A DNA stretch of 64,000 nucleotides from an uncultured Verrucomicrobiales bacterium (lineage in GTDB: Bacteria; Verrucomicrobiota; Verrucomicrobiia; Verrucomicrobiales; DEV007), in contig CALKOM010000023.1 of assembly GCA_938091905.1 (NCBI GenBank), positions 64,001 through 128,000 on the forward strand. The letters are read 5' to 3'. The notes beneath the pieces are model-generated. The model had not been told where the DNA came from and ran no database searches. It was given only the letters and a program-made list of their open reading frames with translations. Positions within the stretch are counted from its first letter, which is position 1. Every line of letters starts with the position of its first letter. The translations under genes were made by a program, and so were the position numbers. Below, in pieces: positions 3,102 to 22,685 of this stretch.

Positions 3102-6100
3102 TCAACGGACGCGCACGCGATAATACCCGTTGCCAACCTGGGCCCGAGTCGTATCGTCATCCGTTAGAGTCGATTCAGCGCTTGTCGCCGTCACGGTGCC
3201 GATGGATTGCCAATCAGCATTCAAGGCAGACGCGTATTCCACTTCATAGGTCTTACCCACGACACTCGACCAATAAAGCTCGATCGGAGTCGCAGAACGC
3301 TGCACAGATGTTAGACGGAAGTAATCCGCAGGGTTGTTAGGATCGGTCCCAGCAAACGCTTCGCTCTCATCAGAAACGCCATCGCCATCCGAATCCATGG
3401 TCGGTGCCGTCGGCCCCTCTGACACACTCCCCGGAGAACCCTCGAACTCGCCCACCAACCACGCGTCCGCCATCGAAAGATCGCCGTGTCCAATCACATC
3501 GCGTAAACGCAACGATCGCCCATCGCCATCCGCTTCCGTCGGCCAGCCATCGCTGTCATCATAGCTAAACTCGGCAATCGGCGAACCTGCCCCAAAGGAA
3601 AGCTTCACCCGCTCCCCACCATTAGCAAATCTGCCAGAATAAACACCCGCCACCAAAGGATCAGCACCATAACGCGCCGTAAAGGCCTCCGCATTACCCA
3701 CCACCAACACCGTCGCCTCAGGTGCCAGTGTCACTACATCCCCCGACACAAAGTCAAAGTCCACCCCCTTGGTGAAACGGACAGGCTCAAGATCCAGCGG
3801 CACACTCCCCGCATTATAGAGCTCCACGAACTCAAAGTCTTCCCGACGGAATCCCGCAGCCAGCTCCGCCTCGCTTGGCGCTCCCGGATGATACATCAAC
3901 TCCGTGATCACCAGAGAATCATACACACTCAGATCCGGTGTCCCGGCCACAAACTCCACCGCCTCCGACCAGCGACTCCAACCACCCCGCTGATTCAAAT
4001 GGCGCACCCGGGCACGATATGTATAGCCCGGACGCACCATATTGGTAGGAATCGTCATTTCTTCCGTGATCTTGTCCACAAGATCACTCTCCCAAACACC
4101 CTCGATCTCGTAGCGCCAAGGAGTCCCTACTTCATAATTCGGCGTTGAGGGATTGTAGATCTCCCCAAGTCGCCACTGCATACTCACAAACTCCTGACTC
4201 TGAAAAATCGTCCCACCAGAAAACTCGCCTGAGATGAATGTCAGACCATCCACCGGAAACCCATCCGCCCCCGTGTAGCTGATCGTCGGCCGATCAGGCG
4301 CATTGCCATCATCCCCCTCTTTTCTAACATGATTATAGCCATAGCCACGCTGATCTCCATCTCCCACGCTGAAATCATCGGGATCGGTATTTGTCGTGAA
4401 CGCCTTAAGATACTCAGCAAATCCTGACACATCCGCTGTCAGTAAGGTTCGCGTCAAGTCACCTCCCCGAAAGCTCTGAGTCGTCGGGTTCGCGTAGAAG
4501 TTGCCCGTGTGACCGCCTGTCGTCCGTGGATGATTGTTCCACATCGCCAGATCGATCTCCGCCCACACAGAACCACCACCTGCAGACGTGCCCACCTGCA
4601 CGCCATCAACCGAACTCGGCGCTGAAGAGAATATCGATACCTTGATCGTAAACATCGTCGGATCCACCACCGTGATCTCATGATCGCCATTGTAGCCACT
4701 AGCGGCCACACCCATAATCGACACCAGATCCCCCGTCGCATAATCATGCGCACTTGCAGTGACAACCGTTGCCTTACTTCCAGCCTTCGTGATCGCCGCC
4801 ACATCGATCCAATCCTTTCGGCTTCCCACCCACTGCAAATTCTCCTCAACCACCGATCCCACTTGGCCACCACCCGCCGTGCCATCTTCTAACAGAAGAT
4901 CCAGCAGCTCCCGACAGAAGTTCGCATACTCGATCGCGATCTCATCCTGATTCAGACAAGCCTTCGCATCGATCGTCCCACTCCAATGCGTCTCCGGCAT
5001 GAACGTCATGTCCAAATCCCAAGGCACCGGCGACCACACTCCGTTGGGATTCTGATAGAAGAAATGATTCCACCCCTCACGAATATCAATATTTCCCACC
5101 GCACGATTGATTGCACGGAAACCATAGTAATGTGATAGATTCATGTTCTCCCGCCACCACTCGACAGGCTGGCTGCGCCGCGCTTGGGAAATGAACGCAC
5201 TGTAGCTACTATCGATCGGCCCCTGGTGTTTCTGATCACCATTCCCGCCCTCGATCTTGTAAGTATTTCCCTCAGGCAACCCCAAGCGATTCAGCATCCG
5301 CCCATCGGGCGTCTCCTGACTCAAATACAATCCCCACAAATCGCCCCCATACTGATCACTGCTAGGAGTCTCCTCAGCCTCATCGATCACCCGGAAATGC
5401 AAATGATGCATCTTAGGCGAAGGCACACCCGCCAGCGCCTGCAAGCGAAACGCCGTCGTCTCGTCCAGACCAGACATCCCACGATTCGCCGGCACCCAAG
5501 GAGACGCACACGCCGTGAAATTCATCACCCGAAAACCACCCGGATACGCAATCCCATAGTTGTCACGCGCCCGAAAGTTGTTCCCGCGATTGAAGAAGAA
5601 TTTCCACTTATTCTTACCACTTTGATAGGTCGAGAACTCGCCCCGCACCCGAAACTCCACATGATCATACACCCACCCCTCATAGACCATGGTCCCCAGA
5701 AAGCGGACCTCTTCACTTCCTCGATTGTACTGGGAACGCTCCACATCCGCATTGTCCGCAATCAAATGGTAGACTGGTAGAACGGACATCTCCTCCGAAG
5801 TAAACGTACGCTTCGGTGCCTTGCCAGGCTCGGGTGAACCGCTCCAAGCGGGCACGCCATCATAGACAAAGAAGGCGCGATTGGCCGAAGGATCATCCTC
5901 ATAAGGCAACCTCACCACGTTCCCCACCGCATCTTCGGCAACCACGCGATAACGCACCAAACTTCGATGCGCCACGATGGCGACAGGTACGGTGGCTGAA
6001 TAGATGTCATCCATAGCCACGGCATCGCCACCCGTGCCGTCATCATTCATAGGAACGGATTCCCATGAAGACGCATACGCATCATCCGACAGACGCAGGT

Positions 6101-6800
6101 ATTCACCCGGCTTTAACTCTTGCAATTCTAACATCACTCGAGCCACACCATCAACATCAGTCGCCTTCGCACTGATGACCACCGTCTCACCCGACTTAGG
6201 TTGATCTGGAAGATGCTCCACTTGGCGCACTGCAGGCGGAGGATTCTCGGTAAGCACGCTATTCACTTTGCCAGGCGTCGGTTCCACACTCGTTCGCCAA
6301 TGGCCAGAAAGGCCATTGGCCAAACCTGGATGCATCAACTCCATGCTCAGATCATTGTCATCGTCTGACCCGCCGTCGGCTCCCACCGGCCAAGGAAAGT
6401 TATCCTGATAGTTCACCTTATCGACCACCACATTCTCGGCATTGCGGAGGGTCAGGGTCTCTCCGCTATTCGAAAGCGTTCCGCTCTCCCACGCTCCCTT
6501 CGCCTTCACCCCACCGGTAAAGATCGATCCAAATTTGCGATTGTAAGCACCCTCGTCCTGCGCAAGGACCCAATAACCATCCGCGTCGATCGCAGAGCCT
6601 TCAGGAAAGACGTGCTCAATCCCTTCCGTAAACGACCAACCCGACAGATCAATCGCTCCATCGGTTGGATTGTGTAGCTCCACGAACTCAACGAATTCGG
6701 TAGGATCAGCCGGATGATAGTGAATCTCATTGATCACCACCGTTTGAGACCAGGCGCAGGGGGCGAACGCCAAGACTAGAAAGGTGAATAGCTTCTTCAT
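3102..6800 (-). CDS. Secreted lamin-tail-domain / CotH-kinase family protein with C-terminal YRVRV domain
   Basis: Signal peptide (…APCAWS). Two LTD-like domains (VVINEIHYHP..EFVELHN; LVITELMYHP..EFVELYN). CotH motifs RVRGEFS, KWKFFF, GLYLSQE, PWDLDMTF. Ends DSDGDG..GTDP..YYRVRVR. Confidence 0.85.
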   Translation of the reverse strand: MKKLFTFLVLAFAPCAWSQTVVINEIHYHPADPTEFVEFVELHNPTDGAIDLSGWSFTEGIEHVFPEGSAIDADGYWVLAQDEGAYNRKFGSIFTGGVKAKGAWESGTLSNSGETLTLRNAENVVVDKVNYQDNFPWPVGADGGSDDDNDLSMELMHPGLANGLSGHWRTSVEPTPGKVNSVLTENPPPAVRQVEHLPDQPKSGETVVISAKATDVDGVARVMLELQELKPGEYLRLSDDAYASSWESVPMNDDGTGGDAVAMDDIYSATVPVAIVAHRSLVRYRVVAEDAVGNVVRLPYEDDPSANRAFFVYDGVPAWSGSPEPGKAPKRTFTSEEMSVLPVYHLIADNADVERSQYNRGSEEVRFLGTMVYEGWVYDHVEFRVRGEFSTYQSGKNKWKFFFNRGNNFRARDNYGIAYPGGFRVMNFTACASPWVPANRGMSGLDETTAFRLQALAGVPSPKMHHLHFRVIDEAEETPSSDQYGGDLWGLYLSQETPDGRMLNRLGLPEGNTYKIEGGNGDQKHQGPIDSSYSAFISQARRSQPVEWWRENMNLSHYYGFRAINRAVGNIDIREGWNHFFYQNPNGVWSPVPWDLDMTFMPETHWSGTIDAKACLNQDEIAIEYANFCRELLDLLLEDGTAGGGQVGSVVEENLQWVGSRKDWIDVAAITKAGSKATVVTASAHDYATGDLVSIMGVAASGYNGDHEITVVDPTMFTIKVSIFSSAPSSVDGVQVGTSAGGGSVWAEIDLAMWNNHPRTTGGHTGNFYANPTTQSFRGGDLTRTLLTADVSGFAEYLKAFTTNTDPDDFSVGDGDQRGYGYNHVRKEGDDGNAPDRPTISYTGADGFPVDGLTFISGEFSGGTIFQSQEFVSMQWRLGEIYNPSTPNYEVGTPWRYEIEGVWESDLVDKITEEMTIPTNMVRPGYTYRARVRHLNQRGGWSRWSEAVEFVAGTPDLSVYDSLVITELMYHPGAPSEAELAAGFRREDFEFVELYNAGSVPLDLEPVRFTKGVDFDFVSGDVVTLAPEATVLVVGNAEAFTARYGADPLVAGVYSGRFANGGERVKLSFGAGSPIAEFSYDDSDGWPTEADGDGRSLRLRDVIGHGDLSMADAWLVGEFEGSPGSVSEGPTAPTMDSDGDGVSDESEAFAGTDPNNPADYFRLTSVQRSATPIELYWSSVVGKTYEVEYASALNADWQSIGTVTATSAESTLTDDDTTRAQVGNGYYRVRVR

Positions 6801-6996: not shown

Positions 6997-8351
6997 CTAA
7001 GCCAACGTGACTGGTCGCGACGATGTGGTCGAGGATGGCCTTGTGCCCAGTTCTAGCAGTACCGCAACAGCCGTCAACGCGGCAGAGAAGATGAGCCCGC
7101 TCACGGGAAAATGCATAAAGGGCTCAAACGGCACCCAAGGTAACACCAGGAACGCAAACAAGGGTAGCAAAACTTCATTCTCCAGTGACGATCCATGACC
7201 AAGCCCCTTAAAGCCCATCACCAAGCTGACAGGCAGGAGCGCGTAGTGAATAAAGGTCCATGAGGTCATCACCAGGTAAGGTCTCCGAGGCAGAGAAGTT
7301 AAGAACCTTCTCAACGTAGGAAACCCTCGCCCAGAAATCGCCAAGACGAATGCACCCGCGACCACGGACAAAGAGAACACGTAGACAGCAGGAGCCAAAG
7401 GCGCTCCCTGGTTGAACCCCGTTTCTGCTAGTTCGATGTTGACCATAATCAGGCTGTTCAGAAAGGACGTCATTCTCACAAGAACAGAACCTATCAGAAA
7501 ACCGCAGATTGCGGTGGGCAGCACATCATATCTCCCAGAGATCTGCGGCTTCCGGTAAGCCTGGAAGGCAAACCAAGCGATCAAACAATAGGCCAATGGC
7601 TGAATCCAAATCGTCACGGGTGAAATCGCCGCCTCTCCGTTCATCCTCATCTCCATGCCGAACTTAGAGCTGCCGTTACCGTTTGAAAGAAACTGGACCA
7701 AACAAAAGTACCAAGCACGACCAACGACCACCTGGGAAAACAGAGTTCCCAACACGATTAGCGAGAACGCTCGGGTGCTGAACGGCAGCGCGCAAGAAGT
7801 TTGCTGAGCCAGCCCACACGCCCATGTAAACAGCGATAGATCAAATACACCATCACCCCAAGGGCCACAGCACGAACACCTGCCGTGAGTAGCGTTGCCA
7901 AACTCACCTCATCCCATCTAATGATATCGGCAGAAGCTTCCGTGCTCGTGGCACGAAAAGCACTGTTTTCCACATACACAGACCACGGCAACGAACAAAC
8001 CACCTTGCCCAAACCGAAGTGCCAAAGCACGCGTTCAAACAGAGAGGTAATCATACCAGCCGCACTCAACAAGACGCCCACTGACATGTAACCAACGAGC
8101 ATCGCAAGCATTCGGCGCTTCCACGACACGTCCGGATGCACTTTGGCATACTCCGCATTCAGCGTCGACTCTTGCCCTAACTGAGCGCACGCTTCTTCAT
8201 ACGCCTCTTGAGAAGAGAGCCCCTGGGCCATGAGGGCATCAATCTCGTCACGCAGGTGGTTCTCGAGTTCTGTCAGGCTATCGAGATCAATCGAATCGTT
8301 CCGTGCTTACGTCTCGCGCCAAGAAGCGAGGGCTTTGTCTAAGTCGAACAT
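6997..8351 (-). pseudogene. Disrupted permease-prefix-domain membrane protein
   Basis: MFDLDKALASWRET*ARNDSIDLDSLTELENHLRDEIDALMAQGLSSQEAYEEACAQLG: an in-frame TAA at 8307-8309 interrupts the permease-prefix motif. A frameshift near 7760 joins it to the hydrophobic ORF 6997-7755. Overlaps the padR stop. Confidence 0.7.
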
Positions 8352-8686
8352 GCCACACCTCCTTCCCAGAGGCCTTCCAACGCCCCGTTCACCGCACGCC
8401 ACTCCCTCTTGCGCTTCTCCGTGGCCTTTCGTCCCGCTCGCTCGATGCGGTAGTACTTTCGGTCTCGGCCCGTCTCCGCTTTCTTCCAGAACGACCGGAT
8501 CAGTCCTTCCTGTTCCAACCGGTGAAGCACGGGATACAACATCCCATCGGTCCATTCTAGCTGCCCGGCCGAACGCTTCTTCACCTCCTGAATGATCGCG
8601 TAGCCGTAACTATCGCCCTGCGCAAGAACGGCCAGCACCAGCGGCTTCGAAGACGCCGCCACAAGTTCCCTAGGTGGCTTATCCAT
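8339..8686 (-). CDS. PadR family transcriptional regulator
   Basis: LVLAVLAQGDSYGYAII…WTDGMLYPVLHRLEQEGLI…GRDRKYYRI winged-helix signature. Confidence 0.92.
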   Translation of the reverse strand: MDKPPRELVAASSKPLVLAVLAQGDSYGYAIIQEVKKRSAGQLEWTDGMLYPVLHRLEQEGLIRSFWKKAETGRDRKYYRIERAGRKATEKRKREWRAVNGALEGLWEGGVACST

Positions 8687-8856
8687 GAGCCAATGATGCA
8701 TTGCTCAATAATGTATTCAGGAATTATCTACGAATCGCTAGAAAAAACGGAATTCCGGCCGCCCCAGTTCGACAATCTCGACCCACCCGCGCCAAAACGT
8801 TCCGCATTGCCACGTCGGCATGGAAGCCTTCAAGATACACCCAAAGCGTACTCACC

Positions 8857-9420
8857 ATGGGACAACGTCGCCAACATCGCCAGGAATACTCATTGGACTC
8901 GGGAGACCTCGAGCAACTCTCGCAGAAAGACATCGCTGCGGTTATTCGCGCCGTGGATGACCTCGTAGGCCGTGGCGGACGAACTATGGTCGGGAAGATT
9001 CTCAAGGGCTCGGCTTCAAAGGATGTGCTAGGACTCTGGTACGATAAGAATCCCGCCTACGGCCACTTCCGCGATCTCACGCTCGCCAAGATCGGTCAGC
9101 GGGTTGATTGAATGATCGAGCAGGGCTATTTGGAGATTCACCATTTAGGACGCTTACCCTGTCTATCCTTCTCTGAGAAGGGCTTGGCAAGGGCCTGCCG
9201 GATTCGCAGCGAGGAGTGGCCCCAACAGTGCTCGGCGAGGGTGCAGAGCGGTGGCCCCTACCTGATGACTTTCCTCAAAGACTGCAATCGCCGAACGATC
9301 TTTCAGTTGCTTGACGGCATCTCTCAAGAGCAAGACCCGAATTATCTCTTCGTTAGAGTCGTGGACCGAGATTGACTACTAGAAGGTCGCAGCTCGCATT
9401 CGGAGAGTCATCCGTGAGTG
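8857..9420 (+). pseudogene. Disrupted stand-alone RQC (winged-helix) domain protein
   Basis: GGRTMVGKILKGS…YGHFRDLT…RVD*MIEQGYL with TGA 9109-9111 where Trp is expected. A later frameshift leads into LESWTEIDY*KVAARIRRVI (TAG 9380). The end is approximate. Confidence 0.7.
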
Positions 9421-9802
9421 CCGAGGCGGATTCTCTGGGAGATCCGTTAGGTTGGTGCACTAGCCGAGAATCGGTAATGGATTGTGCCCGTGGTCACCCG
9501 CTTATCTGGAAGGAAGCGCCCAACTGCGTCTCGGCAACCTGATTTCGGAAAAATCTCGCGACAATGACAGACGCTCGTTAAGAACTCACCTGCAGGGTGA
9601 GCCTATTCATCGCCCTCTTTGCGTTTCCACTCCCTCTCCGACAAAGGCTCATCTCCCTCTTCCTGAATTCTCATTTCCGTTACTCGGCTTAGTAGACAGG
9701 GATATCAACACACCACCCATTGCCGCTAGCCCAAAGGTGTGACTCCGATTAAGTTTCAGATAGAAAAGCACCGGAAGGAGTAGTATCGCGGAGAACAGTT
9801 CC

Positions 9803-10810
9803 TCAAGACTGAGGAACTGTATTCTCGATAAAACGATAGAACAGCCGTTCGCGTGGCGAAGGTGCTGATTGGTCTTGGTAGGCGGTGGCACCGGTCCGCC
9901 CTGGATAGAAGGTCTCGATGGTCGTCCAGTTGCCATCGCCTAACAGCGTGGAACGCTCAATGTCATAGCTGACACCAAGTTCCGTTGCCCAGATAACCGT
10001 GATTTGCGTGGGGCTGTCACGAATGGCCATCGGCTCGAGGGGATCAGGAGCATCGACCGTGAGCACCAGTTCGGCTCCGCCTGGATTGTAAGTGCCTTGG
10101 GCGAACCGAAAGACGACATAGTGACCGTTCAGATACTTGTTTAAGGGATAGTAGCGAAGAATCGGGGATGTATCCGTTGTGATGAAATCTGTCTTTGCGT
10201 CCGGCGTCTCTGACAGGATAGCCATACTGAGGGAAGCCGATCCTGGATCAGTGTCCGTGACCCAAATTTCGATGGATGGCACCTTGTCTGCTGTGGCGAT
10301 GCCACCCAAACGTTGGGCATAGCCGAGGCCGTCAAAGACGATGCGTTCGTTGAACTGATAGACGACGACATGAGGCCCCGCGCCTAATCCGCCCCATTGC
10401 GCTCCGTAGTTGAAGCTGTTGTCGAGATCCGCTGGAGTGGGATTGGCATCGTAGAGGAACTCGGGAAGAAAGGTAGCACCTGTCGCGTTGGAACTACTAG
10501 TGGAGGCAATTGGGTCCTCAAGAATAAAGAGGTTCTCCTTGGGGCCGTAAGTGTTTGAAGCAGACGTTAGGGTTGCTTGCTCAGCGCCAACCTGAGATGG
10601 GTCATCGGTAAGGTGCTCTGTCCCGGCCCCTGTGGTCGCTGTGCCTTGGTTGGAAATGGCTGAATCTCCGAGTGGCAATGTGGATTCGACGGTGGTGCGA
10701 TAGATAACTTTCACCGTCTTGTCCGGAGGGAGGTCTCCTAGTGAGACAGAAACGTCTTGTGCCTGGGCGAGGCTGGCGCATGCCAACGCGAGGATGATGA
10801 GGCATTTCAT
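9803..10810 (-). CDS. Secreted protein: C-terminal half of a DUF11-like Ig domain + discoidin/F5-8-like domain + C-terminal FYR domain
   Basis: Signal peptide MKCLIILALACASLAQA. LGDLPPDKTVKVIYRTTV..ISNQGT..LTDDP (second half of DUF11-like fold). GLGYAQR..IEIWV..GHYVVFRF (discoidin-like). Tail W..YDIERST..W..FYRF. Confidence 0.6.
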   Translation of the reverse strand: MKCLIILALACASLAQAQDVSVSLGDLPPDKTVKVIYRTTVESTLPLGDSAISNQGTATTGAGTEHLTDDPSQVGAEQATLTSASNTYGPKENLFILEDPIASTSSSNATGATFLPEFLYDANPTPADLDNSFNYGAQWGGLGAGPHVVVYQFNERIVFDGLGYAQRLGGIATADKVPSIEIWVTDTDPGSASLSMAILSETPDAKTDFITTDTSPILRYYPLNKYLNGHYVVFRFAQGTYNPGGAELVLTVDAPDPLEPMAIRDSPTQITVIWATELGVSYDIERSTLLGDGNWTTIETFYPGRTGATAYQDQSAPSPRERLFYRFIENTVPQS

Positions 10811-10827
10811 AGGAATGAACGGTAATG

Positions 10828-11130
10828 TTAGGCGAAGACGGCTTCGAGTTCGAGTTTGCCCTCACGCAGATTGATGGGCACGAGAAAGATGGAAAGGGTG
10901 CCGAGTGTAGGGTGCGCTAACTCGTAAGTCCCTTGTTGGAATTCGGTGGTTTCCACCTGGATGATCAGAGAGAATGGCTTTCTTCCAGAAGTCATCGCGG
11001 TGGGAATATCGGAGACGGAAAGCAGCTTTCCCGGAATGCTCGCTTCGCTTGTCTTTAAAGTGAGCGAAGAATCAACATGAGGCTGAAAGAAGCCACTATC
11101 GACAGAAGCTAGATCAATGGAGGTGCTCAT
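10828..11130 (-). CDS. DUF6916-like small beta protein (tail-collar operon associated)
   Basis: RKPFSLI..QQGTYELAHPTLGTLSIFLVPI..LEAVF motif. Confidence 0.75.
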   Translation of the reverse strand: MSTSIDLASVDSGFFQPHVDSSLTLKTSEASIPGKLLSVSDIPTAMTSGRKPFSLIIQVETTEFQQGTYELAHPTLGTLSIFLVPINLREGKLELEAVFA

Positions 11131-11139
11131 GGGTGTGCG

Positions 11140-11634
11140 TTAGTTCAAGATAGCCTCCAGATAACACTTTCCTTCGCCGATATCGATCGGTACCAGGAAG
11201 AGCGAATGTGATTGGAGTGAGGCACTGGCCACCGTGTAGGATCCTTGCTCGAGAGGGGCTGATGCCGAATGGCTTGCCTCAAAGATGAGCTGGAAGGGAG
11301 GGCGCCGAAGCGCGTGTTTGCCGTCAGGTCGCGGGTAAACTGGCAAGTCACGCACTTCATGTAACGTGATCGGCGTCGTCCGACCATTGTCGGTGACTAG
11401 TTCGAAGGACGTGCCTTTCAGGGGCTTGTAGGTCGCGCTACTCACGGTGTTTAGGTCAAAGGCTTCGGGCTCTTGATAGTCGTGGCGTGGCACGGGTTCC
11501 ACCTTGGGGCCGCCCAGAGGCACGTCGCGGCCTTCGATGACGAGTTCTTCATTGGAAGAGTACTCTGCGGGTTTGTCACAACTCGCGAGGGCAACTGCAG
11601 GTGCAGCGATTCGAATGAAATGTCGGCGTTGCAT
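11140..11634 (-). CDS. DUF6916-like protein with Tat/lipoprotein signal
   Basis: N-terminus MQRRHFI…ALASC (twin-arginine + lipobox). C-terminus PFQLIF..LEQGSY..LFLVPI..YLEAILN is paralogous to 10828-11130. Confidence 0.7.
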   Translation of the reverse strand: MQRRHFIRIAAPAVALASCDKPAEYSSNEELVIEGRDVPLGGPKVEPVPRHDYQEPEAFDLNTVSSATYKPLKGTSFELVTDNGRTTPITLHEVRDLPVYPRPDGKHALRRPPFQLIFEASHSASAPLEQGSYTVASASLQSHSLFLVPIDIGEGKCYLEAILN

Positions 11635-11638
11635 GAGA

Positions 11639-12148
11639 TTAAGAGGTTGCTGGGATTGGCTGAGGCGATCGCTCTAACAGTTCGTAAACGCCTTGATCTT
11701 CTACAGGGAAGAAGCCCAGTCGACGGTAGAGTCGCATGGCAGGGTTGTTCTTCTCAACGTGAATGCGGACCGGTTTGTGAGACTTCAGTGCTTGCGCTAG
11801 GATGTCCTCGAGAATGCGGCCCCCGATACCGTTGCCGCGATTGGCAGGAAGCAAGGCGATGTCGATGATGCGGATTTCATCCTGACGTTCATCCAAGTAG
11901 AGGCGGCCAATAGGTTGGCCACGGGTATTGAGAATGAGGTCAAACTTGGCCTTGGCGAAGTGTTTCATGTAATGGACATGCTGCGCTTCGAACTGTTGCT
12001 GTAAGAAAGAATCGATCTGGGCCTGTGGCCATCCTGTCTGGGCGAGTTCTTCCTGTCGGGTACTCGCATAGAGGCGACACAGAAAGGCAAGGTCTGCGCT
12101 GCCTGCGTTCAGATCGGCCGAGCGAAAGCTGGTGGAGGGAACGGACAT
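11639..12148 (-). CDS. GNAT family N-acetyltransferase
   Basis: LYASTRQEEL..FLQQQFEAQHVHY; IIDIALLPANRGNGIGGRIL; NNPAMRLYRRLGF. The start could also be ATG 12160. Confidence 0.92.
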   Translation of the reverse strand: MSVPSTSFRSADLNAGSADLAFLCRLYASTRQEELAQTGWPQAQIDSFLQQQFEAQHVHYMKHFAKAKFDLILNTRGQPIGRLYLDERQDEIRIIDIALLPANRGNGIGGRILEDILAQALKSHKPVRIHVEKNNPAMRLYRRLGFFPVEDQGVYELLERSPQPIPATS

Positions 12149-12149
12149 G

Positions 12150-12773
12150 TCAGACGGCATACGATTCTTGAGTCCAGGTTCCTTGCCAGTCACTGCAACG
12201 GGCAAACTTGCTCTCTAACACTGCGACCTCATGGCGATAGGCGGCGTCGGGTTTCGGCCAAATGTCATGCCAGGTGACGCTGTAGTGGGCGGCGGCCGGT
12301 GGCGCCCATTCGAAGACGCTTGTGTGAAGGATCTCTAAGCGTTCACCATAACGCGCTTGCAGATGCGGCGCCACGAGCGTGATCACATCGGCGGATTGTT
12401 CGAGCACCGTGATGCGTTCGACGGGCGATGTTTCCGGCCGCAACAGGCATTCGATGATCATTCCCAGCCCAAGACCACTGATCAAGATGTGGCCGCCCCG
12501 TTGGAGTCCTTCGGTGATCGCTTCGCGTTGGGACCACCATTCTTCGTAGAGGTCGGTCATCATATCGATACCGCCCACTTTCAATCTGGTGTATCTGCCA
12601 GGGCGATGGAGCATCCAATGGGGCACCTCAGGGGAGGCCTCCGAGATCTGACCAGCGGGAACGACGGGCAGAGTGAAGCGTTTCACCTCCCATTCACCAG
12701 AAACGCCTTCGGGTACGTCTGACTTGTAGTAGTCAGTCGGCTCGTAAAGCTGTGATGAAAGGGAAACGGCCAT
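12150..12773 (-). CDS. Class I SAM-dependent methyltransferase (spermidine-synthase-like)
   Basis: Motif I ILISGLGLG, acidic residue at end of strand 2 (ITVLEQS), WHDIW motif. Confidence 0.7.
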   Translation of the reverse strand: MAVSLSSQLYEPTDYYKSDVPEGVSGEWEVKRFTLPVVPAGQISEASPEVPHWMLHRPGRYTRLKVGGIDMMTDLYEEWWSQREAITEGLQRGGHILISGLGLGMIIECLLRPETSPVERITVLEQSADVITLVAPHLQARYGERLEILHTSVFEWAPPAAAHYSVTWHDIWPKPDAAYRHEVAVLESKFARCSDWQGTWTQESYAV

Positions 12774-12788
12774 GGGGTGTGGTGAGAC

Positions 12789-13316
12789 CTAGCTGCGGGA
12801 AGGGTAGAGACCTTGAAGGGCGATGATGAAGTTCATGACCAAGTAAGGCTGCATGTTGTTGTGCGCCTGGCCGCCACCTGTGTTGTCGAGCTGATTGATT
12901 GCCATGGTGGCATTGCGAGTGCCGCCATAGAGATTGGTGCCACCTCCTCGACCGGCAATCTGGGCAGGGAGACCGCCTTCTGGATTGGCGTTGTTCGGAT
13001 CCTCCGCTGCACCCATGAGCCCATGGGTGTGAGAGGGCATCTGCGCTTCCGTGAGGGTCGTCGTCTCGCTTCCACCAGATTCTCCGAGTCGTCGTGTGGT
13101 CAGTCCAGGACCGCGGCCAGGGTGCATGGGGGCGCGCCCTTGGAGATTGGGCAAGGCTGTGGTGGTTCTACCGTCGCCTCCATAGGTGGTGCCAATGAGG
13201 GAGAAGAGAGCGGTATTCTGGGCGATCGGGAGCAACTGCCCATAACAGAACGCCCAGCTTCTAGGAGCAAATTTGCCAGCGAAGATGCGGATCTCAGCGA
13301 TGAAAGGTTCTGACAT
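12789..13316 (-). CDS. Phage tail collar domain protein (microcystin-dependent protein MdpB-like), copy 3
   Basis: MSEPFIAEIRIFAGKFAPRSWAFCYGQLL..ALFSLIGTTYGGDG..LPNLQGR…HNNMQPYLVMNFIIALQGLYPSR. Confidence 0.93.
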   Translation of the reverse strand: MSEPFIAEIRIFAGKFAPRSWAFCYGQLLPIAQNTALFSLIGTTYGGDGRTTTALPNLQGRAPMHPGRGPGLTTRRLGESGGSETTTLTEAQMPSHTHGLMGAAEDPNNANPEGGLPAQIAGRGGGTNLYGGTRNATMAINQLDNTGGGQAHNNMQPYLVMNFIIALQGLYPSRS

Positions 13317-13899
13317 GAAGATAGAAGCTTGAGTTAGTTTCGGGATGGGAAGAGGCCGAAGAGCGCCACGATGAAATTCACGCAGACGAAAGGTTGGACA
13401 TTGTCATGCGCTTGGCTGCCTCCCGTGTGTCCGATCGCATCTGCGTTCATGGCAGCGCGTTGTGTGGCACCGGCCTTGTAGGTGAGAATGGTGCCTCCGG
13501 GATTGGCAAAGATGGCACCATCGGGAGAGTTGGCCGTGCCTGTACCCGTGGTCCCTCGCGAGGTATGCGTGTGGGAGCCGATCTGTGAGGCTGAGAGAAT
13601 CTCACCCTCCTGCCCCGACTTGCTTCCGAGGGGGCGGTTGGACAGTCCTGGGCCCCAGCCTTGGTGAATGGGAATGCGCCCACGCATGTCTGGTAGGCCA
13701 AAGGTGGTGCGGCCGTCGCCACCGTAGGTTGTGCGTAACAAACTGAAGAGCACGTCATTCTGAGCGACGCCTATCAATTGCCCGTCACAGAACGCCCAGC
13801 CTCTGGGAGCGAATCTCCCAGCAAACATTCTGATTTCGCCTACAAACGGTTCTGACATGAAAATAGAAGCTTGAGTTAGTTTCGGGATGGGAAGAGGCC
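13306..13899. repeat. 52-bp direct repeat (13306-13357 and 13848-13899, 51/52 identical) spanning both collar-gene junctions
   Basis: ggttctgacatgaa[g/a]atagaagcttgagttagtttcgggatgggaagaggcc occurs twice. Confidence 0.9.
13334..13858 (-). CDS. Phage tail collar domain protein (MdpB-like), copy 2
   Basis: MSEPFVGEIRMFAGRFAPRGWAFCDGQ..TTYGGDGRTTFGLPDMRGR…HDNVQPFVCVNFIVALFGLFPSRN. Confidence 0.93.
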   Translation of the reverse strand: MSEPFVGEIRMFAGRFAPRGWAFCDGQLIGVAQNDVLFSLLRTTYGGDGRTTFGLPDMRGRIPIHQGWGPGLSNRPLGSKSGQEGEILSASQIGSHTHTSRGTTGTGTANSPDGAIFANPGGTILTYKAGATQRAAMNADAIGHTGGSQAHDNVQPFVCVNFIVALFGLFPSRN

Positions 13900-14382
13900 T
13901 CGCATGGCGATGCAGAAGGCGAGGGTCGTGTAAGGCTGCATGTTGTTGTGCGCCTGCCCACCGGCATTGGCGAGCATGCCAGGGTCCATGCTGGCGTTAG
14001 GTGTACCGCCAATGTTGAACAAATTTAGGCTTGCAGTGTTGGAAGCGAAGTAGTTTCCCCCAACTGTGGAGGCGGCTGCCGTCGTATTGGAAACCCGCAC
14101 GGTGTGCCGATGCGGTGGAATCTCTGAGGCGTCGAGCAAGTGCGTTTCATAGCCGCCCTTATGGCCCAGGGAGTGACCATTGCCCTCTTGGATGGGCGTG
14201 CGCCCCCGCAAATCAGGAAGCCCAAAGGACGTGCGACCGTCGCCACCGTAGGTTGTGCCTAACAAACTGAAGAGGGACTGGTTCTGATTGATTGGCAAGA
14301 TCTGCCCATCGCAGAAGGCCCAACCCCGAGGGGCAAAGTTGAATCCCACGATACGAATTTCTGCAAGAAAGGGTTCTGACAT
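13876..14382 (-). CDS. Phage tail collar domain protein (MdpB-like), copy 1
   Basis: MSEPFLAEIRIVGFNFAPRGWAFCDGQ..LFSLLGTTYGGDG..LPDLRGR…HNNMQPYTTLAFCIAMRGLFPSRN. Confidence 0.93.
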   Translation of the reverse strand: MSEPFLAEIRIVGFNFAPRGWAFCDGQILPINQNQSLFSLLGTTYGGDGRTSFGLPDLRGRTPIQEGNGHSLGHKGGYETHLLDASEIPPHRHTVRVSNTTAAASTVGGNYFASNTASLNLFNIGGTPNASMDPGMLANAGGQAHNNMQPYTTLAFCIAMRGLFPSRN

Positions 14383-14406
14383 AGGTGTGAAGTCTGAAAT
14401 CTCAAA

Positions 14407-17304
14407 TTAAGGGACGACGACGGATGGGTCTGTTGGATCCGTGCTCGACAGGTTGACTGTGCCATTCACGATCGATGCCTGGCCGTTCAAGTTGGTGCCT
14501 TGGTCGGCAATGACGCCATCGACTGTCCCCGCGCTTGAGCCATCGATGAACAAGTGGACATTGGCAGAAGTGGCGACGTCGAATTCAAAGGCGTTGTGGG
14601 CAAAGCCAGCATCGAAATCGACAAAGATCTGGTCGCTCGAAGAAGCCGTTTGGAACTCAACGCTCTTGTCGCTGCGGAAGTTAAACATCGTGTCGTGATC
14701 CGGAATGATTTGGTTCTGTTTCTCGATGTGCACTTCGCCGCCGTTGCGCGTGTTGTGGACGATCGACTCGTAGGGAAACTCTTGGGTTGCTGACACGCCG
14801 AGGTCCGTGTTGTCGGCATTGCCACTGGTGACGTCGTGGATGATCTCATTACTCACGAAATGATGGTAGTGCTCGGCATTGTCCGTATCCGTGCGGGCAA
14901 TGTGTCCCCAGACTTCACGGTGCGTGTTGTTCTGAACGATGCTTTCCCCGGTGGTTCCATCTTTCGCGGTGATGTTTAGGCTCGCGCCAAATTGGGCTGC
15001 ATTGTCGCCTTGCAGGCCTTCGAGCGTGTTGTTCGTGAAGATCGCTTCAAAGGTGCTTCCAGTTCCGCCGATGATCATTTCGACTTCACCCTGGGGGAAG
15101 CCTTTGAAGGCGAAGCTACTTCCGGCATCGGTAAGATGATCGGTGACTTGGAAGGTGTTGCGCGAGACGTGCACATCGAGATCTCCAGAGAAGGCAGGCG
15201 CATTCGGCGCCGTTCGGATATTCATGGAACCGTAGTCACCTTTGCCACAATTTAGAAACGTATTGCCTAACAAATCCTCTAAGTCGGCAAGATCACCGAT
15301 GATGATGTCTGCTGTGACTGAACCGGCCACATAAACTTCCAAGCCAGCAGCGCCGACACTCACATCAGCACTGGTGAACTCTTTCAAGGATCGCTCAAAG
15401 TGATTGCGCGTCAGGTCGAATCGAACACTACCACTATCCGCAGTGATGAACTGAGCTAAACCAGATCCATGCTGGAAGGTGTTGTTATCCAAGGTCACCT
15501 GACCGCTGATGCCGTGAACTCGGATCATGGATTCACGGAAGACCGAGCGGGTGTCGTCACCGATATTTCCAGGCAGATGGAAACGATTTGTATCCGTGAT
15601 AGATGAGTTGGTGATCTCAAGGCCGACCAAGGTTGTCCGTTCGGTGTAGGTGACGGGCACATCGAATGGCGTGGCATTGATGGCGCAATCACTGACGTTA
15701 TCGATCCGCACGCGGTCGAGACTCAAACCACCTGCGAGTGCCGCCGCATGAATGGCATCGGCACCGCTTTGATAAGTGGTCGTGAGCATGGCGTCATCCG
15801 TGCCGTTGATGTCATTGATATCGAGATTTCTCAGGGTCATCAAGCCGGCGTTGGCAGCCAGGCGAACAGCATCAACGTCAGTCTTGTTCGTGATAAAGCC
15901 TGCGCTCCCCAAGGTCGTGCCTGTGCCTGTGAGCGTGAATGGCCCAACAGTGCCGAGAACTTGAAGGCCAGGCTCAGTGCCGCCAGTCGATTCGATGCGT
16001 TCCAAACTCACACCAGCCCCCGCCACCCCAAGTGTCGTGCTTTGCAGATTGACAGCTCCGCCACTCTCACAAATGACCTTGGATCCCGAAGCGAAATTCA
16101 CTGTTGTCTGGTTGGCGCCGAGACCCGCAAAGAGGATCCCTTGGCCACCGCCCGTGCACTGCAGATCCACCATTCCAAAGTTCGCGTTGCCCGATACATT
16201 TAGAGCCCGAATCCCGTTCTGACTTCCTCCATTCTTCACGATGGAATCGAAGCTGACGTTCAAGTTGCCTCCATTGAGAGCGAGGCTTCCCCCTGATCCA
16301 GAGATGGCCATTTCGCGAATCACTAGACTGCCAAACGTGGTCCCAGCGATCGCAGCGAGATCCGTGTCGGCGATGTTTAGACCGCGCAGCACGTTCGCCG
16401 CGGCCAAGTTGATAGCATTTCCGCTAGAAGTATTCAAAACCGGGCGGGCACCTTGACTCGGCAAAGCAAGCGAATGGGGAGGAAGCGTGAGCCCGCAGAA
16501 GTCGTGGAGGCTTTGGCTAGATCCCTGGCCCATGACGCGTTGATTGTTCGCTAGATTGAGACTGTCATTGTAACTACCCGAGTAGATAAACAAACAATCG
16601 CCATCGGCATCCATGGCGTTGCTGTTGTGCTGCGCGAGGGTCTGGAATGGACTGCCCAGACGTCCATCGCCCGCCGAGGGATTTGAATCGTCAAAGAACC
16701 AGATCATCCCAGTGACGTTGATGCTCACCTCGACGACGCCATTGCCTGTGCTGGCATCATTGAGAGCATCTTCATCTGTGATCACGTAGGTGAACGTATC
16801 CGCGCCCTGAAACCCGACAGCAGGCATGTAAGTGAATGCGCCATTCAGGCTCATGCTGACCTGCCCGCCACCTGATGTGGCGATGCTTGGGGGACCGGCT
16901 TGAAGATCGCTGATACCGTTCCCGTTTGTTCCGTCCGGATCACGGTCATTAGCCAACACCCCTGCTGCTGCTGCCACCTGTATGCCGACATTCCCCATGC
17001 AGTCATAGCTGTCGTCCAAGGCAATGGGCGTCACCATGACGGAATCGCCTATTAACGTAGTGTTCGCATCGACCGCGGTTTCATAAACGAGATCCGTACC
17101 GCTGAAGCCGCTGGTATTGGTGATCTCGGCTTCCAGAGTGATGCTCTCACCAGGATTGGCTTTGCCGTCCGTCTTCACTTCCTCCCCCAGAGTATCGTCC
17201 AGGGTGATGTCCAGGTTCGGGGTGGGAACGCCAGCGATCGCCAGCCACGTGCCAATGCCAATCACGGGTAGGCAGACGATTCCGAGTAGAGTTTGATGTT
17301 TCAT
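14407..17304 (-). CDS. Large secreted adhesin-like protein: N-terminal half of DUF11-like domain + Big_9/cadherin-like Ig + right-handed beta-helix
   Basis: Signal peptide. DGKANPGESITLEAEITN..DANTTLIGDSV (first half of DUF11-like fold). PIALDDSY..GVLANDRDPDG..GAFTYMPAVGFQGADTFTYVITD (Big_9). GDGRLGSPFQTL and Asn/Gly-rich 'xxNxF' repeats (beta-helix). Confidence 0.75.
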   Translation of the reverse strand: MKHQTLLGIVCLPVIGIGTWLAIAGVPTPNLDITLDDTLGEEVKTDGKANPGESITLEAEITNTSGFSGTDLVYETAVDANTTLIGDSVMVTPIALDDSYDCMGNVGIQVAAAAGVLANDRDPDGTNGNGISDLQAGPPSIATSGGGQVSMSLNGAFTYMPAVGFQGADTFTYVITDEDALNDASTGNGVVEVSINVTGMIWFFDDSNPSAGDGRLGSPFQTLAQHNSNAMDADGDCLFIYSGSYNDSLNLANNQRVMGQGSSQSLHDFCGLTLPPHSLALPSQGARPVLNTSSGNAINLAAANVLRGLNIADTDLAAIAGTTFGSLVIREMAISGSGGSLALNGGNLNVSFDSIVKNGGSQNGIRALNVSGNANFGMVDLQCTGGGQGILFAGLGANQTTVNFASGSKVICESGGAVNLQSTTLGVAGAGVSLERIESTGGTEPGLQVLGTVGPFTLTGTGTTLGSAGFITNKTDVDAVRLAANAGLMTLRNLDINDINGTDDAMLTTTYQSGADAIHAAALAGGLSLDRVRIDNVSDCAINATPFDVPVTYTERTTLVGLEITNSSITDTNRFHLPGNIGDDTRSVFRESMIRVHGISGQVTLDNNTFQHGSGLAQFITADSGSVRFDLTRNHFERSLKEFTSADVSVGAAGLEVYVAGSVTADIIIGDLADLEDLLGNTFLNCGKGDYGSMNIRTAPNAPAFSGDLDVHVSRNTFQVTDHLTDAGSSFAFKGFPQGEVEMIIGGTGSTFEAIFTNNTLEGLQGDNAAQFGASLNITAKDGTTGESIVQNNTHREVWGHIARTDTDNAEHYHHFVSNEIIHDVTSGNADNTDLGVSATQEFPYESIVHNTRNGGEVHIEKQNQIIPDHDTMFNFRSDKSVEFQTASSSDQIFVDFDAGFAHNAFEFDVATSANVHLFIDGSSAGTVDGVIADQGTNLNGQASIVNGTVNLSSTDPTDPSVVVP

Positions 17305-17611
17305 ATGAAGCAAACAAGCGGTTTCGGAGGGTAACGGCCCCCGTAGAGTATCCCTACGGGAAAAGCGACCAGGTGTTTCAGCTGGCCAGAAAAGAAGAGC
17401 GACATTCTAAGCACGGGGGGACGAACTACCAGGTCGGCCCGACGTTTGGCAAGCCTCTTACCAGGCAAATGGACGAATCTCCCGTTTCAGATAGCGCGCA
17501 GACTCGTCACAGCGCTTCCCCCCAGACCTGGACCATGATACTCCCGCGAAACGTGCAAGCACCACGAGCAAGTGGCTTCAGGATGCACGGCTACACAAAA
17601 CCCATCTGAGT

Positions 17612-20600
17612 TCAGTCGGGCGCGTTCGGGGGTAGTCTTGCTTCATCCCCCTGCTCCGTTTCGGCATCGATCGCTACGGGCATCTCGGATGGGCTAGATT
17701 CTTGCACCGGTTGGACATTGATATCCACATCCACGGGCACGGCACGGAGCTTGTTAATGATGTCTTCTAACTTCGCTATTGTCGCATCTGCTAGAGTCGC
17801 GGGCTGCTGCTGATGAGCCAAGGAAGCTGCAAGAACCTCCTGGATGCGATCCGTACTGGCATTGAAGGCGGCCAGTTGGCCAACCACGCGTGAAACAGGA
17901 TCGTTGTCGCGCGCACCTCCCGTGAGGAGGTTGCGCGCGAAGGTCTTCTTGATCTCTTCCCAGCGCACGGAGTCTTCTTCTGTTAGGAATCCTTCAAGGT
18001 CTTGGAACTTCAACAGGTTGGCTTCGGCACCGGTCGTCAGCGTTTGAGATTCATTCTCGTAGTGATCCTTGATAACGTTGATCACTTCTTCCTCCGTCAT
18101 GATGGGCAGGATCTTTTCCGCCATGCGATTCATGTTTCTGTAAGAACCCTGAAGCTTAAATGGCGGCTCGGTGCGGTACTCGTCCGACTGCGCAGCGGAG
18201 CGAATGTATTCCAAGTTTACCCGCAGGACGGTGTCACGCACGCGCATGAGCTTGGTCATGACATCGACCATCTCACTGACCTCCTCCGGCGTGTAGTTGC
18301 CTTCGAAATCGACGCCATCAGCCGTGCCATTGCGAGCGATTTGAATGATCGCATGCACGTCTTTCTGGCTGCGCGATCCCAGGGGTGCGAGAATGGCGTT
18401 ACTCGTCAGACAGTTCTCCAAATAGGAATCCTCAAACGCCTGCTGATGGGTACCGACGATATCACCGAGGTTGTAGGTATCGGCCCGGTTGGCCAGCATG
18501 TCAGGAATCTGAAACTTGCCTCCGCTTTCCGTGTAAGGATTGCCCGCCATCACGACAGCGACCTTGCGGCCACGCAAATCGTAGGTCCGGGCCACGCCAT
18601 CGTAGACGCCCTCAATGCGTCGCTGGCCGTCGCAAAGTGAGATGAACTTCTGCAAGAACTCGGGATCACAGTGCTGAATGTCATCGAGGTAGATCATGAC
18701 ATTGTCTCCCATCTCAAGAGAGAGATTGAGCTTCTTGACCTCTTCTCGGGCACTTGCGTTAGGCGCTTCTACCGGATCGAGCGAGCGCACTTGGTGACCA
18801 AGAGCCGGCCCATTGACCTTCACAAAGGTCAATCCTAACCGATCCGCCATGTATTCCATCAAGGTCGTTTTACCGTAACCCGGCGGCGAGATAAGTAAAA
18901 GCAAGCCCATCCGGTCGGTGCGCGTGTCGGCCCCTGCCACACCAATCTGCTTGGCCAAGTTATCGCCAATCATCGGCAAGTAAACTTCGTCCAGCAACCG
19001 GTTCCGTACAAAGGAACTCATGATCCGTGGCTTGAACTCGTCCAATCGCAATAACTCACGTTTGTCCACCGTCAGCGTGTGTTTGATCTCTGTGTAGCGC
19101 TGAAAGAGAGGCAGCGTCTGGCGCTCAAATCTGGCGAGCTTGCTTAGAAACTTGGTGTAGTGGAGGTGATAGTTTCCCTGCGCGATCACAGCATGATTGC
19201 CTAACATGCCATCGATATCAGATTCCAACGGCACCTCAACAACCTCGGCACTTTGCACACCGCCTCGCAAGAGATGGGCAGCCGCCTCATCAAGATACGC
19301 ATGACTGGAATCGAAAGCCCGTAGCCAATCGCGGATGACCTCAAACTCATCTTGAGGGAACTTGGCCAACTTCTTGCGCGCTGCTTCGAAGGCCGATTGC
19401 TGGCGTTTCGTTGCGAGCCCTTTCTGAAAAGCACTCACCAGGGACGCGGCTTCGGCGCTCACGGTGAAACTCGCGCCATCCACCATCTCGTGAAAGAGAT
19501 AGGCTGCGGTCTCCTCAGCGCCGTCGCCTAACCATTGCTGCAATCTCTCGATGTAGGTCGTTTGCAAGGCAGGCGCCTCGTCGAAAGCGCTGCGAACGGC
19601 ACCGAAAGATTCTAGCTGATGAAAGAGACGCTGTTTCTCATGATCTTCTTTCCAAGCTCTCCACGCCACAATACCTTGAGCACGCACTGCTGGATCATAG
19701 CGTAAGAGTCCCGCTTTGGCCTGCAACGGAAGGAGCCGTTTTAAAATACAGAAAGCGTCATGGTCATGGACCCCCTTGGTGTAGCCTTCGGCATAACGAG
19801 GTGCCATGAACTTTCGTAAGACTTCCAGCTCGACTTCCAGGTCACCCACATGCTCTTGGAAATAGCGATAGGCTAGGTACTCACCCCGGTAAACCTCTGA
19901 GCTTTCCGATAGGACTTCTTGGCTCCACGCAGGCTGCGTTTCCAAAAACACCGGATCCTTAATCGGCTCAAAGAAATTCGTGCCCGTGAGGTGGAAGCAC
20001 ATCGCCTCGTCGCGAGGCACGACGGTGAGCTCCAGCGTCTGTTGATTCACGGAGAATCGATGCTTTCCTAGTTGAATAATCGCCTTGCCATCGACGAACA
20101 GTTCCTTGCGATCCTTGAGCTGACGAACAGCATCCTCACGTTGACTCTTCAGCTTTGCCTGAATGGCATCCGCTTTGACCGAGTCACCGAGATCTTGCAA
20201 CTGCGTGACGATGTCACGCACCTTCTCAATCATCAGATCAGATGCCAAGTAGGCGTTGATCTCGTGGAGTTCTTGAAAGCCGTCGAGCCGATTGTGAATA
20301 CTCTGGAAGATGCGTTCGGCAGACTTTTCCAGGTTGGCAGCGCGCTTGTTGCGCGATTCTAACAAGCTGACTTTGCGAGCCTCAAACGCATCGTATATTT
20401 CGGTGCGTTTCTCGCCAAGCTCAGCCACATAATCATCGAACTCGGCATACTTGCCTTCGAGTTCCTCCAGCTGGACCATCGTCTTGCTCAAGTAAGACTC
20501 ACACTTCTCTGGCGAATCACACAGTTCGAGGTAGTTGACCACGGCCTGATTGAGCAACTTAAGCTGCGCCTGAAACTGAGCAGCGCCTTCCTCACGCCCA

Positions 20601-22621: not shown

Positions 22622-22628
22622 GATAAAG

Positions 22629-22678: not shown

Positions 22679-22685
22679 ATTACGA

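Follow-up and report, generated by a model that had tools for sequence, protein, structure and literature searches.

A recurrent, cell-encoded cassette of three tail-collar proteins, a GNAT acetyltransferase and DUF6916, and its extended copy in an uncultured Verrucomicrobiales bacterium

The window, a 64,000-nucleotide (nt) stretch of contig CALKOM010000023.1 (positions 64,001 to 128,000; assembly GCA_938091905.1) from an uncultured Verrucomicrobiales bacterium, carries at 9803-17313 on the minus strand nine co-directional genes, among them three tail-collar paralogues (ColA, ColB and ColC), an acetyltransferase of the GNAT family and two DUF6916 proteins. Tentatively, with slightly less than even confidence, these genes are read as an extended local copy of a cassette that is conserved, spread horizontally and cell-encoded, and in which an acetyltransferase-matured binding knob made of the three collar types acts together with a giant exoprotein. 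This reading is carried by the retention of one gene of each collar type in related triplets, by the recurrence of collars, GNAT and DUF6916 side by side in many phyla, and by the cellular setting of the locus. The genome is 6.19 Mb in size and 95.3% complete.

Results and discussion

The gene cluster

The nine genes, from g1 to g9, are as follows.

g1, 14407-17313, minus strand: secreted protein of 965-968 amino acids (aa; start at ATG 17304 or TTG 17313) with one Big_9/cadherin-like immunoglobulin (Ig) domain and a long repetitive region related by homology to the beta-helix portion of the cassette's giant proteins.
ColA, 13876-14382, minus strand: type-A tail-collar protein of 168 aa, starting MSEPFL, with HxH and without a signal peptide; Collar 7e-29, Gp10_C 5.5e-4.
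ColB, 13334-13858, minus strand: type-B tail-collar protein of 174 aa, starting MSEPFV, with HxH; Collar 5.2e-27.
ColC, 12789-13316, minus strand: type-C tail-collar protein of 175 aa, starting MSEPFI, with HxH; Collar 3.6e-26, Gp10_C 9.9e-6.
g5, 12150-12773, minus strand: methyltransferase-like protein of 207 aa from a phage-rich family; no Pfam match.
GNAT (g6), 11639-12148, minus strand: 169 aa from ATG 12148, member of a cassette-specific subfamily; Acetyltransf_1 2.8e-10.
g7, 11140-11634, minus strand: DUF6916 protein (PF21880 1.2e-15, residues 66-162), predicted Tat-exported lipoprotein.
g8, 10828-11130, minus strand: short, signal-less DUF6916 protein of 100 aa, which is the usual form in the family; PF21880 1.1e-17.
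g9, 9803-10810, minus strand: secreted protein of 335 aa, probably a lineage-specific add-on.

Nine co-directional genes with 1-24 nt spacing had been claimed in a preliminary description of the window, and the open reading frame (ORF) coordinates bear this out: the successive gaps from g1 to g9 are 24, 17, 17, 15, 1, 4, 9 and 17 nt, where the 1-nt gap between g5 and GNAT presupposes that GNAT starts at ATG 12148 (its ORF extends to TTG 12205). The profile searches proposed in that description matched Collar three times, DUF6916 twice and Big_9 among the window proteins; DUF11 had no Pfam match among the window's own proteins. Signal features of these proteins were read by eye from the translations and not with a signal predictor. 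No Rfam family was found in the window, and on the minus strand of the operon neither a sigma-70-like promoter nor a convincing terminator was found.

One collar gene of each type

The collar proteins are confirmed as three paralogues with conserved ends, a variable middle and no signal peptide. They score 100, 94 and 91 bits with Collar (PF07484; curated cut-off 24) and are 52-53% identical to one another. Conservation is at least 0.9 over residues 1-60, 0.26-0.46 at about residues 100-140 and 0.8-0.96 at the C-terminus. The HxH pair (H91/H93 in ColA, H96/H98 in ColB and ColC) is invariant in all three types in alignments of 61 sequences, as is an additional, later histidine. An MSEPF[LVI] start is found in 177 of 218 collar proteins, with MSEPFL in 59/73 of type A, MSEPFV in 60/75 of type B and MSEPFI in 41/70 of type C. 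Among PDB entries the collar profile matched 8kec (2e-6) and 1ocy (1.4e-4), the alignment to 8kec spanning the HxH pair and the C-terminal closing motif. The window proteins start at the collar itself, and an N-terminal shaft or attachment domain is absent.

A tree of 234 collar proteins from 78 triplets, the window's included, resolves three clades, each with 78 members (local supports 0.99, 0.92 and 0.86), and all 78 triplets contain exactly one A, one B and one C protein. The genes follow the order A-B-C in 70 triplets; the 8 others have a permuted order and still keep one of each. Compared with 60 proteins of the same type from other phyla, ColA is 51-67%, ColB 51-63% and ColC 55-75% identical; this cross-phylum identity within a type equals or exceeds that among the window's own paralogues. 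Six of 56 well-conserved collar columns are type-diagnostic, and the diagnostic residues sit in the collar core. If the assembly were obligately 1:1:1, each type should be strictly retained in a single copy, as observed. Based on these comparisons, the collar heterotrimer proposed in the preliminary description is strongly suggested. Head lengths of the A, B and C proteins (54.3, 54.3 and 55.0 aa) showed no co-variation in 43 motif-filtered loci (mean r 0.09, within the range of shuffles).

Known phage fibre tips with a Collar domain, such as those of T4 gp12 and gp37, are homotrimers, and the three genes could likewise encode three separate homotrimers, that is, a repertoire of knobs with different specificities. 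Variants with one or two collars together with GNAT and DUF6916 (L015-L018, L103 and L105) imply that a single chain type can suffice; relatives with one or two collars fall outside the A, B and C clades. A repertoire should, however, gain and lose copies, and an interchangeable set is hard to reconcile with the strict retention of each type and with the type-diagnostic core residues, which makes separate homotrimers improbable. The receptor-binding tips of T4-type fibres (gp12 of the short fibre, gp37 of the long fibre and the C-terminal domain of gp10) share with the window collars the Collar domain, the HxH pair and a C-terminal strand motif. The T4-type tips are homotrimers on long shafts at the baseplate, whereas the window collars comprise three chain types, are shaftless and come without a phage particle.

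The only experimental precedent found for a mixed trimer, which also speaks against homotrimers, is the virophage DSLV2 (statements from this and the other articles cited by PMC number refer to the parts of their text that were available). Three consecutive PF07484 proteins of DSLV2 co-purify as a 1:1:1 complex of ~55 kDa, which forms ~16 nm fibres, binds Synechococcus cells and has a variable patch on the head of the heterotrimer (PMC12724248). The likeness extends to the genes, which in DSLV2 and the Aquatic Virophage 1 lineage are three consecutive, co-directional PF07484 genes of ~170-190 codons for gp37-tip-like proteins of ~19 kDa (PMC12724248). The DSLV2 genes differ in being viral, in lying beside capsid genes and in lacking GNAT, DUF6916 or a giant exoprotein (PMC12724248). 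Unlike them, the cellular cassette is chromosomal or on a megaplasmid and occurs in many phyla, and its trimer is predicted from the genes.

A cell-encoded cassette in many phyla

A scan of one genome per species identified 588 loci that encode ColA relatives. Neighbourhoods were counted in the best 79 of the 588, which are the most ColA-like and hence a biased sample; as kin the loci are not independent of each other, and the counts are descriptive of this sample without amounting to a statistical test. Genes of the related loci are our own ORF calls with greedy removal of overlaps, and their starts may be misplaced in GC-rich DNA. The 79 loci are distributed over Gamma- and Alphaproteobacteria, Acidobacteriota, Chloroflexota, Bacteroidota, Actinomycetota, Planctomycetota, Deinococcota, Calditrichia and further groups. 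By local profiles, 75 of them have a tandem array of exactly three collar ORFs, 3 have two and 1 has one, several of the non-triple loci sitting at contig ends. GNAT is present in 73/79 and, with an iterated profile, DUF6916 in 65/79 and a g1-family protein in 42/79. The recurrence of collar triplets with GNAT and DUF6916 beside large surface proteins, which the preliminary description had stated, is thus upheld. Among the 58 loci with flanks of 3 kb or more on either side, three collars were found in 57, GNAT within 6 kb in 56 and DUF6916 in at least 49. In 31 of the 64 loci with more than 3 kb upstream, the first collar is preceded by a co-directional ORF of 600 aa or more whose end lies no more than 400 nt away.

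Among close relatives, the window's genome included, DUF6916 occurs in 7 of 41 genomes, and among genomes sampled evenly from the phylum in 5 of 301 (4 above the cut-off). In a search led by DUF6916, Collar and GNAT adjoin in 9 of 10 other carriers; the exception, L014, has DUF6916 and a g9-like gene only. A related-locus search with g8 alone found nothing. The cassette is present in 66 plasmid records, lies on a megaplasmid or chromid in cultured species, and has cultured carriers that include Ruegeria sp. TM1040 (on a megaplasmid, TM1040_RS01845-RS01875), Sinorhizobium meliloti (pB of strain LMB1) and Paenibacillus amylolyticus. GC skew is +0.07 to +0.18 over window positions 10001-16000 only and negative in the rest of the window, where flanking minus-strand genes also show negative skew; a positive skew confined to the operon denotes an unusual composition and fits a foreign origin. 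The patchy distribution, the megaplasmid or chromid location and the local reversal of GC skew point to horizontal spread of the cassette. No tRNA genes were found in window 1-30000, and no flanking repeats.

A decayed prophage, tailocin or contractile injection system remnant would account for the phage relatives of the Collar domain and of the g5 family. This origin is hardly credible and is already contradicted. The 18 flanking ORFs scanned contain no capsid, terminase, sheath, tube or baseplate families, in agreement with the preliminary description, and are cellular: they encode a lamin-tail (LTD)/CotH protein, a DUF3686 AAA ATPase, a Band 7 protein, a DinB-type polymerase, YbeY, RRF and PyrH. 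Genome-wide, the only Collar matches are ColA, ColB and ColC and the only DUF6916 matches g7 and g8; sheath (PF04984) and Baseplate_J (PF04865) had no match in the genome, with control genomes positive, and no collar was found in a prophage or injection locus elsewhere. The frames are intact and the order is conserved in hundreds of species. A tblastn search of 50,697 phage records was negative for ColC (E<=1e-8) and for g8 (E<=1e-2). In the 80 best collar loci of IMG/VR, the collar ORF is single in 67 and threefold in 8, GNAT is present in 1 and DUF6916 in none. The viral contig with a triplet and GNAT (L189) has an integrase directly before the cassette at the contig end and looks like host DNA at a prophage edge. 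With its cellular flanks, the absence of sheath and Baseplate_J and its recurrence in bacteria, the locus is supported as a cell-encoded, non-phage tail-fibre-tip system, which is what the preliminary description had called domesticated.

Two loci from the same family as the window's genome show particular arrangements. The most syntenic (L013 7234-8884, genome G008) combines Big_9 and beta-helix with three collars, GNAT, DUF6916 and a g9-like gene; its collar genes are interrupted by changes of frame and its g1 homologue is split in two, through decay or poor assembly (the genome is 79% complete). L015 (5900-13900, genome G019) has two near-identical collars, each with its own DUF6916, together with GNAT and a carbamoyltransferase; genes for Transglut_core3, JmjC and HPr-kinase-like proteins lie on the opposite strand and are reminiscent of peptide-tailoring clusters. 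In L044 (3238-4461) and nine other alphaproteobacterial loci a conserved protein of ~405-450 aa (TM1040_RS01865 in L106), which has no Pfam match, lies between ColC and GNAT; in others this place is taken by a GT4 glycosyltransferase (L067 8394-9671).

GNAT and DUF6916

The window GNAT scores 41 bits with Acetyltransf_1 (cut-off 20.7), and members of the cassette subfamily are 42-62% identical to it across phyla. Searched against PDB, the GNAT profile ranks first proteins that their depositors named N-terminal acetyltransferases (5e-13); Naa50, RimI and archaeal N-terminal acetyltransferases come next.

Both g7 (57.8 bits) and g8 (64.3 bits) exceed the PF21880 cut-off of 27. The g7 signal, MQRRHFIRIAAPAVALASC, contains a twin-arginine motif (QRRHFI), a hydrophobic stretch and a lipobox (LASC), and g8 lacks a signal, in keeping with the earlier assignment of one DUF6916 lipoprotein of the twin-arginine translocation (Tat) type and one signal-less DUF6916 protein. 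The family is large: of the representatives of clusters at 50% identity, 9,954 match at E<=1e-3 and 6,123 still do so at E<=1e-10, nearly all of them ~97-104 aa long. One further protein, of 237 aa, combines a Tat signal with two DUF6916 domains. A word-index search, which is weak evidence, found no longer fused DUF6916 proteins. The AlphaFold2 model of g8 (pLDDT 90.8) comprises one helix and a six-stranded barrel and had no Foldseek match at E<=1e-3 in PDB or viral models. The motifs with which PilZ proteins bind cyclic di-GMP are absent among the conserved residues of DUF6916.

DUF6916 lies within 400 nt of 56 of 77 GNAT genes, with frequent overlaps of 7-36 nt. These 56 pairs are arranged as GNAT then DUF6916 (15), DUF6916 then GNAT (14), convergent (26) or divergent (1). 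In the convergent cases (26/77) the 3' ends of the short DUF6916 genes overlap GNAT or lie within ~260 nt of it, and such genes therefore have their own promoter, with possible antisense effects. A profile search also recovered natural fusions of GNAT with PF21880, in five protein clusters of 260-270 aa that are mutually 51-89% identical, one of them observed on 7 contigs. The fusion P0151 shares 49% identity with the window GNAT (2e-45) and, over 54 residues, 41% with g8 (9e-10). In the 80 metagenome loci nearest to P0151 the GNAT and DUF6916 genes are separate but overlap or abut, and are followed by a collar triplet; in one, GNAT and DUF6916 are in the same frame with only a stop codon between them.

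Because of the abutting or overlapping genes and the natural fusions, DUF6916 looks like a partner of the acetyltransferase and not like a fibre chaperone. The preliminary description had the collars chaperoned by DUF6916; the coupling to GNAT, together with the finding of no phage relatives and no chaperone-like fold match, points elsewhere. DUF6916 may in addition link the enzyme to the collar as an adaptor, since the DUF6916 and collar genes overlap in single-collar loci.

The giant exoproteins and the accessory genes

A secreted Ig/beta-helix protein had been proposed for g1. The Ig part stands, with a Pfam match to Big_9 (1.1e-10, residues 95-189) behind an N-terminal hydrophobic segment seen in the translation; among PDB sequences, too, only Ig-repeat proteins matched g1. 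The beta-helix part is seen in family members alone. Jackhmmer placed g1-family proteins in 43 loci, L013 included, with g1 residues ~200-720 as the shared region, and the giant proteins are mutually homologous, with tandem Big_9 repeats followed by the region that matches these residues. Sixteen members were annotated for Big_9 (13/16), Beta_helix PF13229 (2/16; 1.2e-10) and a type IX secretion system (T9SS) sorting tail (1/16). The split g1 orthologue of L013 has a sub-threshold beta-helix match. One large neighbouring protein, outside the g1-family count, carries an autotransporter domain.

The description of g5 as an S-adenosylmethionine (SAM) methyltransferase rests on PHROG phrog_15480 'methyltransferase' (2.8e-26, residues 8-203, the full length) and a weak match to spermidine synthase structures (E 0.033). 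Neither g5 nor g9 has a Pfam (even at E<=10) or NCBIfam match. The g5 protein contains a conserved GLGLG stretch, its sequence clusters in the protein atlas are mostly viral, and g5-like genes, present in 4/79 loci, are a rare accessory. The second secreted protein, g9, was described correctly: it starts with a classical, Sec-type signal peptide, MKCLIILALACASLAQA, read from the translation. Relatives of g9 are found only in L014 (76% identical) and L013, and a weak atlas lead to F5/8 type C (0.83-0.84) is under the 0.9 level.

Proposed mechanism and localisation

In the favoured reading, ColA, ColB and ColC would assemble 1:1:1 into a shaft-less knob like the collar-plus-head tip of the T4 gp12 and gp37 fibres. 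The HxH histidines would clamp the knob, and the hypervariable distal loops (about residues 100-140) would form a composite ligand face, probably for a glycan. The dedicated GNAT would pair with the short DUF6916 in the cytoplasm and most likely acetylate the collar chains. The nearly invariant (M)SEPF N-terminus is a specific guess at the target, based on the prevalence of MSEPF[LVI] starts and on the match of GNAT to N-terminal acetyltransferases in PDB. The knob is predicted to cooperate with the giant secreted Big_9/beta-helix protein, with which it is associated in the genomes, and to lend it binding specificity. The Tat-lipoprotein g7 may serve as an extracytoplasmic route or as an anchor for the folded complex, and g5 and g9 appear to be lineage-specific additions. 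An unlikely, more elaborate version would hold for more than ten phyla: a metal-clamped ABC trimer assembles in the cytoplasm, is licensed by N-terminal acetylation through GNAT-DUF6916, crosses the membrane as a folded complex, hitchhiking through Tat wherever DUF6916 bears a signal, and docks on the giant beta-helix exoprotein as its rapidly evolving ligand-binding tip of three chains.

Several observations weigh against the proposal. On the side of the enzyme, the similarity of the GNAT profile to PDB proteins lies mainly in the acetyl-CoA-binding core (positions ~80-160), and GNAT scores 32.4 bits with the RimI equivalog TIGR01575, whose cut-off of 86.4 is not reached. GNAT is dedicated to the cassette; that the collars are its substrate is inferred, and some single-collar relatives begin MEP instead of MSEP. 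The GNAT-DUF6916 fusions are rare and some could be frame errors, none of the 80 metagenome loci closest to P0151 having a single ORF with both domains. For g8, the best VIA-align matches are MrkH-N, YcgR-N and PilZ-like barrels at Z 8.4-7.3, which is borderline and within the range regarded as common. On the side of localisation, none of 218 collar proteins has an export signal, the locus DNA examined contains no g1-family protein in 37/79 loci, and a Tat-type DUF6916 with a twin-arginine signal is present in just 14/79 loci (10 of the 14 with a g1-family protein), so that Tat carriage is not a general route. RhiA, whose gene shares a Rhizobium operon with that of the Collar protein RhiB, is abundant, cytoplasmic and absent from supernatants, which fits an intracellular role (PMC2275737).

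RNA libraries give a weak hint that the operon is expressed. Metatranscriptome contigs of 151-276 nt, from four libraries of three studies, are at least 99% identical to g1, ColA, g6, g7, g8 and g9; a further contig, on ColC, is mismatched at 5 of 120 nt. Single contigs bridge g1/ColA, g6/g7, g7/g8 and g8/g9; such contigs may stem from contaminating DNA, and two genes bridged by one contig need not share a transcript. The stretch itself was recovered at 0.82 or more of sampled words in 14 DNA runs from nine studies, which are marine, seawater or ballast-water metagenomes or unlabelled, five of them possibly the source of this DNA.

Most of the objections on localisation would be met if collars, GNAT and DUF6916 formed a purely cytoplasmic complex with another role, for example the sensing or binding of a ligand inside the cell, and the giant protein were just a frequent neighbour. 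GNAT enzymes require cytoplasmic acetyl-CoA, the common form of DUF6916 is signal-less, and the cytoplasmic abundance of RhiA in rhiABC is a parallel (PMC13133039, PMC2275737). Against this stand the homologous giant exoproteins beside the collars, frequently in a directly upstream and co-directional position, as counted above; the 14 loci with Tat-signal DUF6916 and the tandem-DUF6916 protein with a Tat signal, which put part of the system outside the cytoplasm; and distal loops whose hypervariability resembles that of receptor-binding tips. The nine operon proteins, moreover, have no match to PADLOC defence models at E<=1e-3. A purely cytoplasmic complex is therefore somewhat unlikely, and on sequence grounds surface display of the collars appears more likely than an intracellular role.

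The missing export signals and the hypervariable binding face would also suit a released, lectin-like targeting or killing factor of bacteriocin-like character, which would leave the cell through lysis or vesicles, independently of the giant protein. Positive selection has been reported for tail-collar paralogues of Solibacter usitatus (PMC3174227), and COG4675 proteins were detected in soil metaproteomes (PMC5579227). Clustering of the neighbourhoods revealed no recurrent toxin, lysis or immunity gene, the ~19 kDa protein is a knob only, with no effector domain, and the very high cross-phylum conservation of the collar half fits a conserved partner better; a released factor is quite improbable.

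Relation to known systems

Searches of the literature on tail-collar, DUF6916, COG4675 and rhiABC found no description of the cassette in the text available, and the term DUF6916 itself was not found in searches on tail-collar, DUF6916 and COG4675. Among cellular proteins there is a likeness to COG4675 'microcystin-dependent protein' and RhiB, which are stand-alone cellular Collar proteins, RhiB of the Rhizobium rhiABC operon carrying PF07484 (PMC13133039). The rhiABC operon differs in being a quorum-sensing-regulated operon of the symbiosis plasmid, for which the available text describes no A/B/C triplet, GNAT or DUF6916. The re-use of a phage collar as the specificity tip of a bacterial appendage has a counterpart in the PilV-collar fusion of a shufflon locus; there, however, collar and pilin are covalently fused and DNA inversion provides the diversity, whereas the window collars are separate proteins (PMC9881135).

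Export of the collars by way of g7 would resemble Tat 'hitchhiker' export, in which signal-less partners of hydrogenase or dimethyl sulphoxide (DMSO) reductase subunit pairs are carried along. The likeness is that g7 is small, bears the signal and is encoded beside signal-less proteins that would fold, and probably bind metal, in the cytoplasm; the difference is that binding of DUF6916 to the collars is putative here, and that the Tat-type form is confined to the minority of loci given above.

Neighbouring genes

Directly upstream of the operon and co-directional with it, window 17612-25439 encodes an ATPase of 1676 aa (DUF3686 + DUF7902 + AAA), an SPFH/Band 7 protein of 700 aa and a membrane protein resembling YqiJ. 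The DUF3686 ATPase has a weak PADLOC match to LmuB (9e-7), and these genes may be a separate system. The product of window 3102-6800, 1232 aa long, combines a CotH kinase domain and a bacterial TSP3 repeat with two lamin-tail domains. The ~1.5 kb from g9 to the next minus-strand gene (window 8230-9742) contain small plus-strand ORFs only, among which ORF 8701-9111 (plus strand) has a fragment-like match to an RQC domain (3.7e-5); these may be gene remnants. A 198-aa ORF at window 30748-31344 matches positions 3-198 of the 423 positions of the TctA profile and may be a truncated or split transporter gene.

Significance

The numbers of DUF6916 representatives (9,954) and of loci with ColA relatives (588) make the cassette very common. 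If the favoured reading is true, bacteria have permanently taken over the specificity tip of phage fibres and equip their own surface proteins with it in the form of a three-chain module, which would explain a large class of 'tail fiber protein' annotations outside prophages. DUF6916 would gain a role, and the collar knob would be a new, naturally diversified binding scaffold. The cultured carriers Ruegeria sp. TM1040, S. meliloti and P. amylolyticus make the question directly testable.

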